A stretch of DNA of 64,000 bases, from NCBI RefSeq assembly GCF_009931435.1, contig NZ_CP043414.1. One strand, 5' to 3'. Position 1 is the first letter of the stretch, and every line of letters begins with the position of its first letter. Positions 40,301 through 43,300 of the stretch are shown here, in pieces. A program made the position numbers. The stretch is from Escherichia coli (GTDB lineage Bacteria > Pseudomonadota > Gammaproteobacteria > Enterobacterales > Enterobacteriaceae).

Positions 40301-43300
40301 TGTTTTTCAGCGATATGGTGCTGACAAGCGGTGATAAAGCCCTCGAACAATATACGCGAAAGCGCGTACTCGCTACTGTTCCATTCCGGGTGCCACTGTA
40401 CGCCCAGCGCAAAAGGATGATTGATGACGCTAACCGCCTCAACTAAGCCATCCGGCGAGCGAGCTTCAACACGCAACCGTGGGCTAACGACCTTCGCCCC
40501 TTGTCCATGCAGAGAGTTTACCCAAAAGTTGCTACATTCAGGTAACAACTCAGACAGTAATCCCCCCTCTTCAACCTGAACTTCATGCGACGGTGCATAT
40601 TGCTGTTCCACCGGCAGTTCGGGATCTTCCCGATGTTCCAGCAATTCAGGCTGTTCGCACAGCTTGCGATGCAACGAACCACCGGTTGCCACCACCAGTT
40701 CCTGTAAACCCCGGCAGATGGCGAAAATGGGGATGCGCCTTTCGAGTGCGGCATTAATTAACGCCATGCTCAGAAGATCACGCCCGGGATCGGCGTCAGG
40801 CTCATCGCCGTTTTCACCATATAGGTGCGGCTGCACATTGCTGGGACTACCAGGAAGATAAATACCATCGAGTTTCGGCAAAAGTTGTTCAAGTAATGAC
40901 GGTTCCGCCAGCGCATGTGGCAGCGCAATTGGCAAGCCGCCTGCGTGGATGATGGCATTCAGGTACTTTTCTTGCAGAGTCTGGGTCGCATGACCCTTAA
41001 GCCTGTTCCTGCACATTACGACACCGATAACCGGATTGTTCATTATATTTTCCATGCTCAATCTCACAAAGTGGACTAAATTATCGCCATTACTGCGCTT
41101 TAAATGACCTTTATGTTCAATATTTTTTCAATCTAGCAGTGGGTTTTCATTTTTGCAAACTCAATTTAACATTTGACAAACATTTAGTTTGCATACAGAT
41201 TCGAAGAGTGGTCATTATATTTTACGTTTTGATAACGAGCGGAAAACAAACCAAAGGCGAAGAATCATGGAAACCAATATCGTTGAAGTAGAAAACTTTG
41301 TTCAGCAGTCAGAAGAGAGGCGGGGTAGCGCCTTTACGCAGGAAGTGAAACGCTACCTGGAGCGCTACCCAAATACGCAATATGTTGATGTTTTACTTAC
41401 CGATCTGAATGGTTGTTTTCGCGGGAAACGTATTCCTGTTTCAAGTCTGAAGAAGCTGGAGAAAGGGTGTTATTTCCCGGCCTCGGTGTTTGCAATGGAT
41501 ATTCTGGGCAACGTAGTAGAAGAAGCGGGCCTGGGTCAGGAAATGGGCGAGCCGGATCGTACCTGTGTTCCTGTTCTCGGTTCCTTAACCCCTTCTGCTG
41601 CAGATCCTGAGTTTATCGGTCAGATGCTCCTGACCATGGTCGATGAAGATGGCGCTCCCTTTGACGTTGAGCCACGGAACGTTCTCAACCGCCTGTGGCA
41701 GCAGCTACGCCAGCGCGGCTTGTTCCCGGTCGTAGCGGTAGAGCTGGAGTTCTATTTACTGGATCGCCAGCGCGACGCTGAAGGGTATCTGCAACCGCCC
41801 TGCGCGCCCGGCACCGATGACCGCAATACACAAAGTCAGGTTTACTCCGTTGATAACCTCAACCACTTCGCCGACGTGCTCAATGATATTGATGAGCTGG
41901 CGCAGTTACAGCTGATTCCGGCAGATGGCGCGGTCGCCGAGGCCTCGCCAGGTCAGTTTGAAATCAATCTTTACCATACCGATAACGTGCTGGAAGCTTG
42001 CGATGATGCGCTGGCACTAAAACGCCTGGTGCGTCTGATGGCAGAAAAGCATAAGATGCACGCCACTTTTATGGCGAAGCCGTATGAAGAGCACGCGGGC
42101 AGCGGGATGCATATCCATATCAGTATGCAAAATAATCGTGGCGAGAACGTGCTTTCTGACGCGGAAGGCGAAGATTCGCCGCTGCTGAAAAAGATGCTCG
42201 CCGGGATGATTGACCTGATGCCGTCATCAATGGCGTTGCTGGCACCAAACGTGAACTCGTATCGCCGCTTCCAGCCGGGGATGTATGTACCGACGCAGGC
42301 GTCGTGGGGCCATAACAACCGCACCGTCGCCCTGCGTATTCCCTGCGGCGATCGCCATAATCACCGCGTGGAATATCGCGTGGCGGGTGCCGATGCCAAC
42401 CCGTATTTGGTGATGGCAGCGATTTTTGCCGGTATTTTGCATGGCCTTGATAACGAACTGCCATTACAGGAAGAAGTCGAAGGCAACGGGCTGGAACAGG
42501 AAGGCTTACCCTTCCCGATTCGTCAGAGCGATGCGCTGTGGGAGTTTATGCAAAACGACGACCTGCGCCACTATCTGGGCGAGCGTTTCTGCCATGTGTA
42601 TCACGCCTGTAAGAATGATGAGCTGTTGCAGTTTGAGCGCCTCATCACAGAAACCGAAATTGAGTGGATGTTGAAAAACGCGTAGTGACCCCTTGCGGGG
42701 TATGTATCACCGGCCTGAGCGGAGCCTGGCCTGACATTTGCTGGTAATCCAGACATTTCCCGGATGTCGCGTTATGGAGCGCAGGCGGCAACGGGCTTCC
42801 GTTAACGATTAAGACTGTGACGAGGAAATGAGATGATGCCGATGATTAAATCCCCGCATGGCGAGGGAGGCTGCGTATGCGCCCCTCCTGCGACTGACTG
42901 GACTCCGCCCCCTTTGCTTCCCTTGCTAAACAGGTTTGATTTCAGGTCAACACGACCGCAAACCTTATTACGCAGGGGAGGCAGCAATTATGGCTATTAA
43001 TTCACCACTGAATATTGCTGCGCAACCCGGCAAAACCCGTCTGCGAAAATCACTGAAATTGTGGCAGGTGGTGATGATGGGTCTGGCCTATCTCACGCCG
43101 ATGACTGTGTTCGATACCTTTGGCATTGTTTCCGGCATTAGCGACGGTCACGTTCCGGCGTCCTATTTGCTGGCGCTGGCGGGTGTGCTGTTTACCGCGA
43201 TCAGCTACGGCAAACTGGTTCGCCAGTTTCCGGAGGCCGGTTCGGCCTATACCTACGCGCAAAAGTCGATTAACCCGCACGTCGGATTTATGGTCGGCTG

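Follow-up and report, generated by a model that had tools for sequence, protein, structure and literature searches.

The spacer between the divergent genes puuD and puuA of Escherichia coli, found at 41056-41266 (211 nt, 34% G+C) of the 64,000-nt stretch of contig NZ_CP043414.1 analysed here (hereafter the window), is the shared control region of the puuDRCBE and puuAP operons. Very probably, this control region combines four operators of the putrescine-responsive repressor PuuR, which we call S1 to S4, with a binding site of the redox regulator ArcA lying between S3 and S4. PuuR is reported to repress the puu genes, to bind the promoter regions of both puuA and puuD at four binding motifs in the spacer, and to be released by putrescine (PMC9951944). 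Tool results or published data establish the K-12 identity of the sequence, the start site of puuD and the ArcA site, and they also show that the motif is repeated, conserved and fixed in its spacing.

The locus itself had been recognized as the puuD-puuA divergent region in a first-pass annotation of the window, and sequence match, flanking open reading frames (ORFs) and protein domains all agree with that call. The 321 bases round the site match one E. coli chromosome with 100% identity and thousands of others with 98-99%, and the RefSeq annotation of the matching chromosomes has puuD on one flank and puuA on the other. Against K-12 MG1655, window 40775-41475 shows substitutions only, so the published K-12 data carry over base for base. 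The spacer is the same DNA as the K-12 control region bar three bases: it shares with the K-12 PuuR operators the locus, the number of motifs (four, as counted in PMC9951944) and the adjacent regulator gene puuR, and differs from them at 41206 and 41207, just upstream of S4, and at 41227, the last base of S4.

A conserved array of four 20-mers

We collected 80 loci encoding PuuA relatives, among which puuD is divergent from puuA in 66; the spacer measures 205-240 nt in 55 loci and mostly 212 nt. The alignment of 55 distinct spacers (the window and 54 loci, from Escherichia to Serratia), on which all conservation values below rest as weighted majority frequencies, reveals four conserved 20-nt blocks, all in one orientation. 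They share a loosely palindromic 20-bp motif, roughly nTG(G/T)nCAwTATwTTnnCCAT, and most likely represent the operators of PuuR. The candidate operator S1 (TTGTTCATTATATTTTCCAT, 41036-41055) takes in the start codon of puuD and occupies +69 to +88 relative to the transcription start of that gene; S2 (GTGGACTAAATTATCGCCAT, 41071-41090), a probable operator, lies in the puuD leader at +34 to +53; the candidate S3 (ATGTTCAATATTTTTTCAAT, 41113-41132) covers -9 to +11 of the puuD promoter; and the candidate S4 (GTGGTCATTATATTTTACGT, 41208-41227) would occupy about +1 to +20 of the putative puuA promoter. Conservation reaches 0.88 in S1, 0.81 in S2, 0.87 in S3 and 0.88 in S4, compared with 0.53 in the gap at 41091-41112 and 0.60-0.69 in the other gaps.

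The repetition of the motif is also apparent without any prior model. When the sequence is compared with itself, the top 20-mer pairs are S1/S4 (16-17/20) and S1/S3 (16/20), and the core common to S1 and S4 recurs without mismatch as a 12-nt direct repeat, TCATTATATTTT (41040-41051; 41212-41223). A repeat of that length, which the first-pass annotation had not listed, was reached in 3 of 1000 dinucleotide-preserving shuffles of the 211-nt spacer (the control used for all chance tests below) and is therefore above chance. Operator matrices were built from the orthologous sites, and each site was held out in turn, the orthologues of the other three scoring the fourth over the 127,962 frames of the window. 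S1, scored by the orthologues of S2-S4, obtains 22.5 bits and rank 2; S3 obtains 17.4 bits and rank 6, and S4 17.1 bits and rank 5, and the frames that outrank these three are other sites of the array. With all sites in the matrix, S1, S3 and S4 reach 22.7-25.4 bits and S2 18.5 bits. One further match, CTGGTCATTATTGTTAACGT (47586-47605, plus strand), is the best outside the spacer with 17.3 bits and falls within an ORF of 321 aa located beyond the puu cluster on its downstream side; as 17% of simulated 64-kb sequences reach that score, it is probably a chance match and was not retained as an additional operator.

The spacing of the four sites hardly varies. Over the 55 spacers, S1 and S2 are 34-35 nt apart and S2 and S3 41-42 nt, and the distance from S3 to S4 is 95 nt in 49 of them. 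Between S4 and the puuA start codon, by contrast, the interval varies from 54 to 90 nt. Loci that played no part in training the matrix contain the four-site array too, with spacings of 36, 42 and 98 nt in Chimaeribacter and of 36, 41 and 96 nt in second copies of the locus in Serratia. The motif array thus travels with puuR and puuA through the 55 distinct spacers as well as the Chimaeribacter and Serratia paralog loci. One genome departs from this S2-S3 distance: in Buttiauxella sp. A111 (L022), a 10-nt insertion brings it to 51 nt. This amounts to one helical turn, and S2 and S3 would therefore keep the same face of the DNA.

The first-pass annotation had drawn a different layout, with two PuuR operators instead of four copies (S1 and S2 were missing from it), placed at 41104-41123 and 41208-41225 on TGACC and TGGTCA half-sites, and with an inverted repeat between them which would then be a separate operator for another dimeric regulator. 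We consider this layout very unlikely as a whole, even though parts of it survive. Its right-hand site is well supported, for it lies inside S4, a conserved operator-like 20-mer with the held-out rank given above, and both segments are indeed AT-rich. Both half-sites exist as well (TGACC at 41105-41109, TGGTCA at 41209-41214) and resemble reverse complements of each other, and the frame 41104-41123, at rank 132, is within the top 0.1% of all frames. That frame nonetheless obtains 4.2 bits, where S3, which starts nine bases further right, obtains 23.0; it shares 11 nt with S3, is not conserved as a site, and lies about 9 bp off the conserved motif at 41113-41132. No stretch of the spacer is less conserved than the one that holds TGACC (0.55, against 0.87-0.88 at S3 and S4), and a 5-mer of this kind is trivially frequent by chance.

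Promoters, the ArcA site and the inverted repeat

Kim et al. 2012 mapped the puuD start site to K-12 (version 2) position 1359076, with the upstream sequence ...TTGAGTTTGCAAAAATGAAAACCCACTGCTAGATTGAAAAAA, which corresponds to window 41123 on the minus strand. The start site comes from mapping and the hexamers are our reading of the sequence: -10 TAGATT at 41135-41130, preceded by TG at 41138-41137, and -35 TTGCAA at 41158-41153 with a 17-nt spacer, so that the promoter would extend over 41123-41158. The CTAGCAG block at 41133-41139, which belongs to this extended -10, has a conservation of 0.92. The lone strict sigma-70 consensus match in the region, TTGTGA-16-TATAAT (41069-41042, minus strand), was rejected as the puuD promoter because of the mapped start at 41123; transcription from it would begin inside puuD, and its TATAAT is part of the S1 core. 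On the other strand, a putative puuA promoter (41173-41201, plus strand) would consist of -35 TTGACA at 41173-41178, a 17-nt spacer and -10 CAGATT at 41196-41201, with a start near 41208. TTGACA is almost invariant over the aligned spacers, and positions 2 and 6 of the -10 are A and T, respectively, throughout the genera (CAGATT, CACATT, CAGAGT, CATTGT, TATGTT).

The ArcA site lies between S3 and S4. Table S4 of Park et al. 2013 (PMC3798270, PLoS Genet 9:e1003839) lists at puuD an ArcA site of four direct repeats, K-12 1359005-1359047, ATGCAAACTAAATGTTTGTCAAATGTTAAATTGAGTTTGCAAA, which is the exact reverse complement of window 41152-41194. All 43 nt and the 11-bp phasing are the same as in the published site, without any difference. 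The site reads on the minus strand, spans -70 to -28 of puuD and has its core 18-nt box, ATGTTTGTCAAATGTTAA, at 41183-41166. It thus appears in the published list of chromatin immunoprecipitation (ChIP) sequencing sites, it consists of TGTTAA-like direct repeats 11 bp apart, and expression of the genes it flanks depends on ArcA: a ChIP peak sits on it and, without ArcA, puuA is derepressed 15-fold and puuDR 11-fold (Park et al. 2013, PMC3798270). Scored with a matrix made from 114 other published ArcA boxes, the puuD site being excluded, the core box (41166-41183, minus strand) obtains 14.3 bits and rank 4 of about 128,000 frames. Conservation of the core is 0.90, the central box being nearly invariant across genera. 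The outer repeats are weak, with published values of 2.6 and 1.4 bits (Park et al. 2013, PMC3798270) and values of 2.2 and -0.9 bits in our own 7-mer scoring.

Two other matches to the ArcA matrix are worth recording. The top match in the window, ACGTTAACTATATGTAAA (11320-11337, plus strand), is the published ycjG box and part of the training set. At rank 3 with 14.7 bits stands a second ArcA-like box within the control region, TCGTTATCAAAACGTAAA (41221-41238, minus strand), which belongs to the puuA leader, reaches into the end of S4 and occupies a poorly conserved stretch; it includes position 41227, a T in the strain studied and a C in K-12.

The inverted repeat of the first-pass annotation is real, although its position was one base off and the gap between its arms is 24 nt, not 26: the 8-nt arms are TGCAAACT (41154-41161) and AGTTTGCA (41186-41193). 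They can be extended to 12-nt arms, 41154-41165 and 41182-41193, which are 11/12 complementary and 16 nt apart. Of the two, the left arm shares bases with the -35 hexamer of puuD and with ArcA repeat 4, and the right arm with ArcA repeat 1 and with the spacer between the hexamers of the putative puuA promoter. In favour of an independent palindromic operator, a 12-nt inverted repeat with at most one mismatch arose in only 38 of 1000 shuffles (3.8%). Perfect 8-nt inverted repeats whose arms are up to 40 nt apart, by comparison, were found in 416 of 2000 (21%), and the arms do not behave as partners. Their complementarity drops from 11/12 in Escherichia to 5-7/12 in Cedecea, Buttiauxella and Serratia, the decay as a whole reaching 3-7/12; in Cedecea, Buttiauxella and Pluralibacter the right arm is degenerate while the left is intact; and the aligned genera display breaks such as G-C to T-C or G-G, with no compensating change between the arms seen among them. 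As the symmetry is not beyond chance and the arms do not co-vary, we rejected such an operator. The repeat is better explained as the two weak outer ArcA repeats, 1 and 4, with the left arm on the puuD -35, and no separate operator is called for.

One may also wonder whether the FNR site that is said to exist in the spacer corresponds to the inverted repeat or to sequence enclosed by it. The best FNR-like match in the spacer, TTGACAAACATTTA (41173-41186), does lie between the arms and agrees at 7/10 positions. The arms, however, are 16-24 nt apart instead of the 4 nt of TTGAT-N4-ATCAA, and the scan of the spacer for this consensus gave no match below three mismatches; matches with three mismatches are common, 312 occurring in the window against 252 expected by chance. 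We regard this reading as very unlikely. The scan of the spacer for the CRP consensus likewise gave no match below three mismatches. Finally, a 21-nt direct repeat with 76% identity (41048-41068, TTTTCCATGCTCAATCTCACA; 41151-41171, TTTTGCAAACTCAATTTAACA) pairs the puuD start-codon region with the region of the puuD -35 and ArcA repeat 4, possibly by chance.

Weighing the array and its proposed mode of action

Several points weigh against the view that all four 20-mers are PuuR operators of the two promoters described above. Held out, S2 is recovered weakly, with 5.9 bits and rank 59 of 127,962, a value to be set against matrix maxima by chance of 15.4 +/- 2.2 bits in 64 kb. S1 lies partly in coding sequence, itself a source of conservation. 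That PuuR binds exactly these four 20-mers is an inference. The 15-mer AAAATATAATGAACA is presumed to be the published PuuR sequence; it occurs exactly on the minus strand at 41037-41051 in S1, with one mismatch at 41209-41223 in S4 and with two at 41114-41128 in S3, these being among seven matches in the 64 kb against 1.72 expected, and all the others carry at least three mismatches. The -10 of the puuA promoter agrees with the consensus at 3/6 positions only, and for this reason a consensus promoter scan misses the promoter; no mapped puuA start site was found in Kim et al. 2012 or Park et al. 2013. In the papers covered by the full-text search, neither the candidate operator strings nor the term 'PuuR box' occurred, and the other papers retrieved for puuA or puuD contained no operator information. 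A search of the PDB with PuuR returned no structure of PuuR or of a PuuR-DNA complex, the sole match being a distant XRE domain (E = 6e-6).

These points invite the question of whether PuuR uses S3 and S4 only, S2 and perhaps S1 being conserved as an element of the leader RNA or of translation initiation, or as coding sequence. The low held-out score of S2 would be expected on that account, S1 takes in the start codon of puuD as well as its first six codons, and both sites are in the transcribed puuD leader. What makes us judge it improbable is, in the first place, the score that S1 receives from a matrix of S2-S4 alone. The DNA motif at S1 is moreover kept although the residues it encodes vary by genus (MENIMNN vs MGNIFDK), and an S1-like sequence survives in the Serratia paralog loci, where there is no puuD. 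Published data point the same way, for four motifs have been described and truncation of the puuD promoter cuts PuuR repression from 36-fold to 6.9-fold (PMC9951944). We therefore keep the four-operator assignment; as S2 is weak when held out, what places it in the array is its conservation, its spacing and the four motifs counted in the literature.

Under the preferred reading, that of four PuuR operators and an ArcA site, the most likely course of events is the following. At low putrescine, dimers of PuuR would occupy S1-S4 and both promoters would be blocked: PuuR at S3 would occlude the puuD -10 and start site, and PuuR at S4 would sit on the puuA start region. S1 and S2 may add to the repression of puuD, a contribution in line with the finding that PuuR represses the full-length puuD promoter more strongly than the truncated one; repression of the puuA promoters is about 2-fold (PMC9951944). 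Putrescine then frees PuuR from the operators. Phosphorylated ArcA, for its part, polymerises over 41152-41194 and covers the -35 hexamers of the puuD promoter and of the putative puuA promoter, so that both operons are silenced without oxygen. A bolder and, in our opinion, rather unlikely extension is that PuuR forms a DNA loop between S3 and S4, enclosing the ArcA array and both -35 hexamers, with S1 over the puuD start codon. The 95 bp between S3 and S4, about nine helical turns, kept in 49 of 55 spacers against a variable interval between S4 and the puuA start codon, would fit such a loop; the literature searched contained no description of looping by PuuR.

Neighbouring genes, other genomes and significance

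The genes around the control region are those expected of the locus. The coding sequence of puuD (40291-41055, minus strand; start codon ATG at 41055-41053) encodes 254 residues beginning MENIMNN with a Peptidase_C26 domain, and that of puuA (41267-42685, plus strand) encodes 472 residues with the glutamine synthetase catalytic domain, both being identified by ORF, annotation and domain search. The next gene after puuD is that of the repressor, puuR (39707-40264, minus strand), whose 185-aa product was assigned by domain search from its HTH_3 and Cupin_2 domains. Two additional start sites were reported by Kim et al. 2012, one within puuD upstream of puuR (K-12 1359392, window 40807, minus strand) and one, 146 nt ahead of puuP, in the 3' end of puuA (K-12 1357357); they suggest internal promoters for puuR and puuP. 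The latter start site corresponds approximately to window 42842, plus strand.

A few observations were made in other genomes. In the second Serratia copies of the locus (L052 2690-3010; L053, L055, L057, L060-L064, L066-L068), the gene divergent from the puuA paralog is puuR-like instead of being puuD; there, the S1-like site still ends in CAT, and after it comes a short remnant, out of frame, that resembles the N-terminus of puuD (ATGGGCAATATATTTTCC...). The record titled Chryseobacterium sp. 18061 (L070) holds a puuD-puuA locus 90% identical in protein sequence to that of E. coli, with a spacer of Enterobacteriaceae type, and looks like a case of assembly contamination or mislabelling. In Pseudocitrobacter (L001, L002), PuuA shows 98-99% identity to its E. 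coli counterpart and the spacer is almost the same as in E. coli, closer than in Klebsiella or Citrobacter; this likeness may reflect a recent transfer of the puu cluster.

The arrangement recalls the control of divergent promoters through several operators by XRE-family repressors, for instance in the arrays of lambda CI/Cro type, in which a repressor with an XRE-type helix-turn-helix likewise binds several copies of imperfect palindromes of about 20 bp that overlap start sites; PuuR differs by its cupin sensor domain and by its response to putrescine. Control of puuD-puuA by PuuR and ArcA is already known biology at a well-studied locus, and the useful output of our analysis is a set of corrected coordinates: four 20-mers, one site moved by 9 bp, and an inverted repeat now attributed to the ArcA site and the -35 of puuD. 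Builders of PuuR-based putrescine biosensors could draw on the cross-genus matrix and the fixed spacing when choosing minimal promoters. What is mildly new is the rigid spacing of the operators across Enterobacterales and their persistence in Serratia loci that lack puuD. For E. coli itself, the control region offers a textbook-level case in which a pathway-specific repressor, PuuR, responding to putrescine, is layered with the global redox regulator ArcA.

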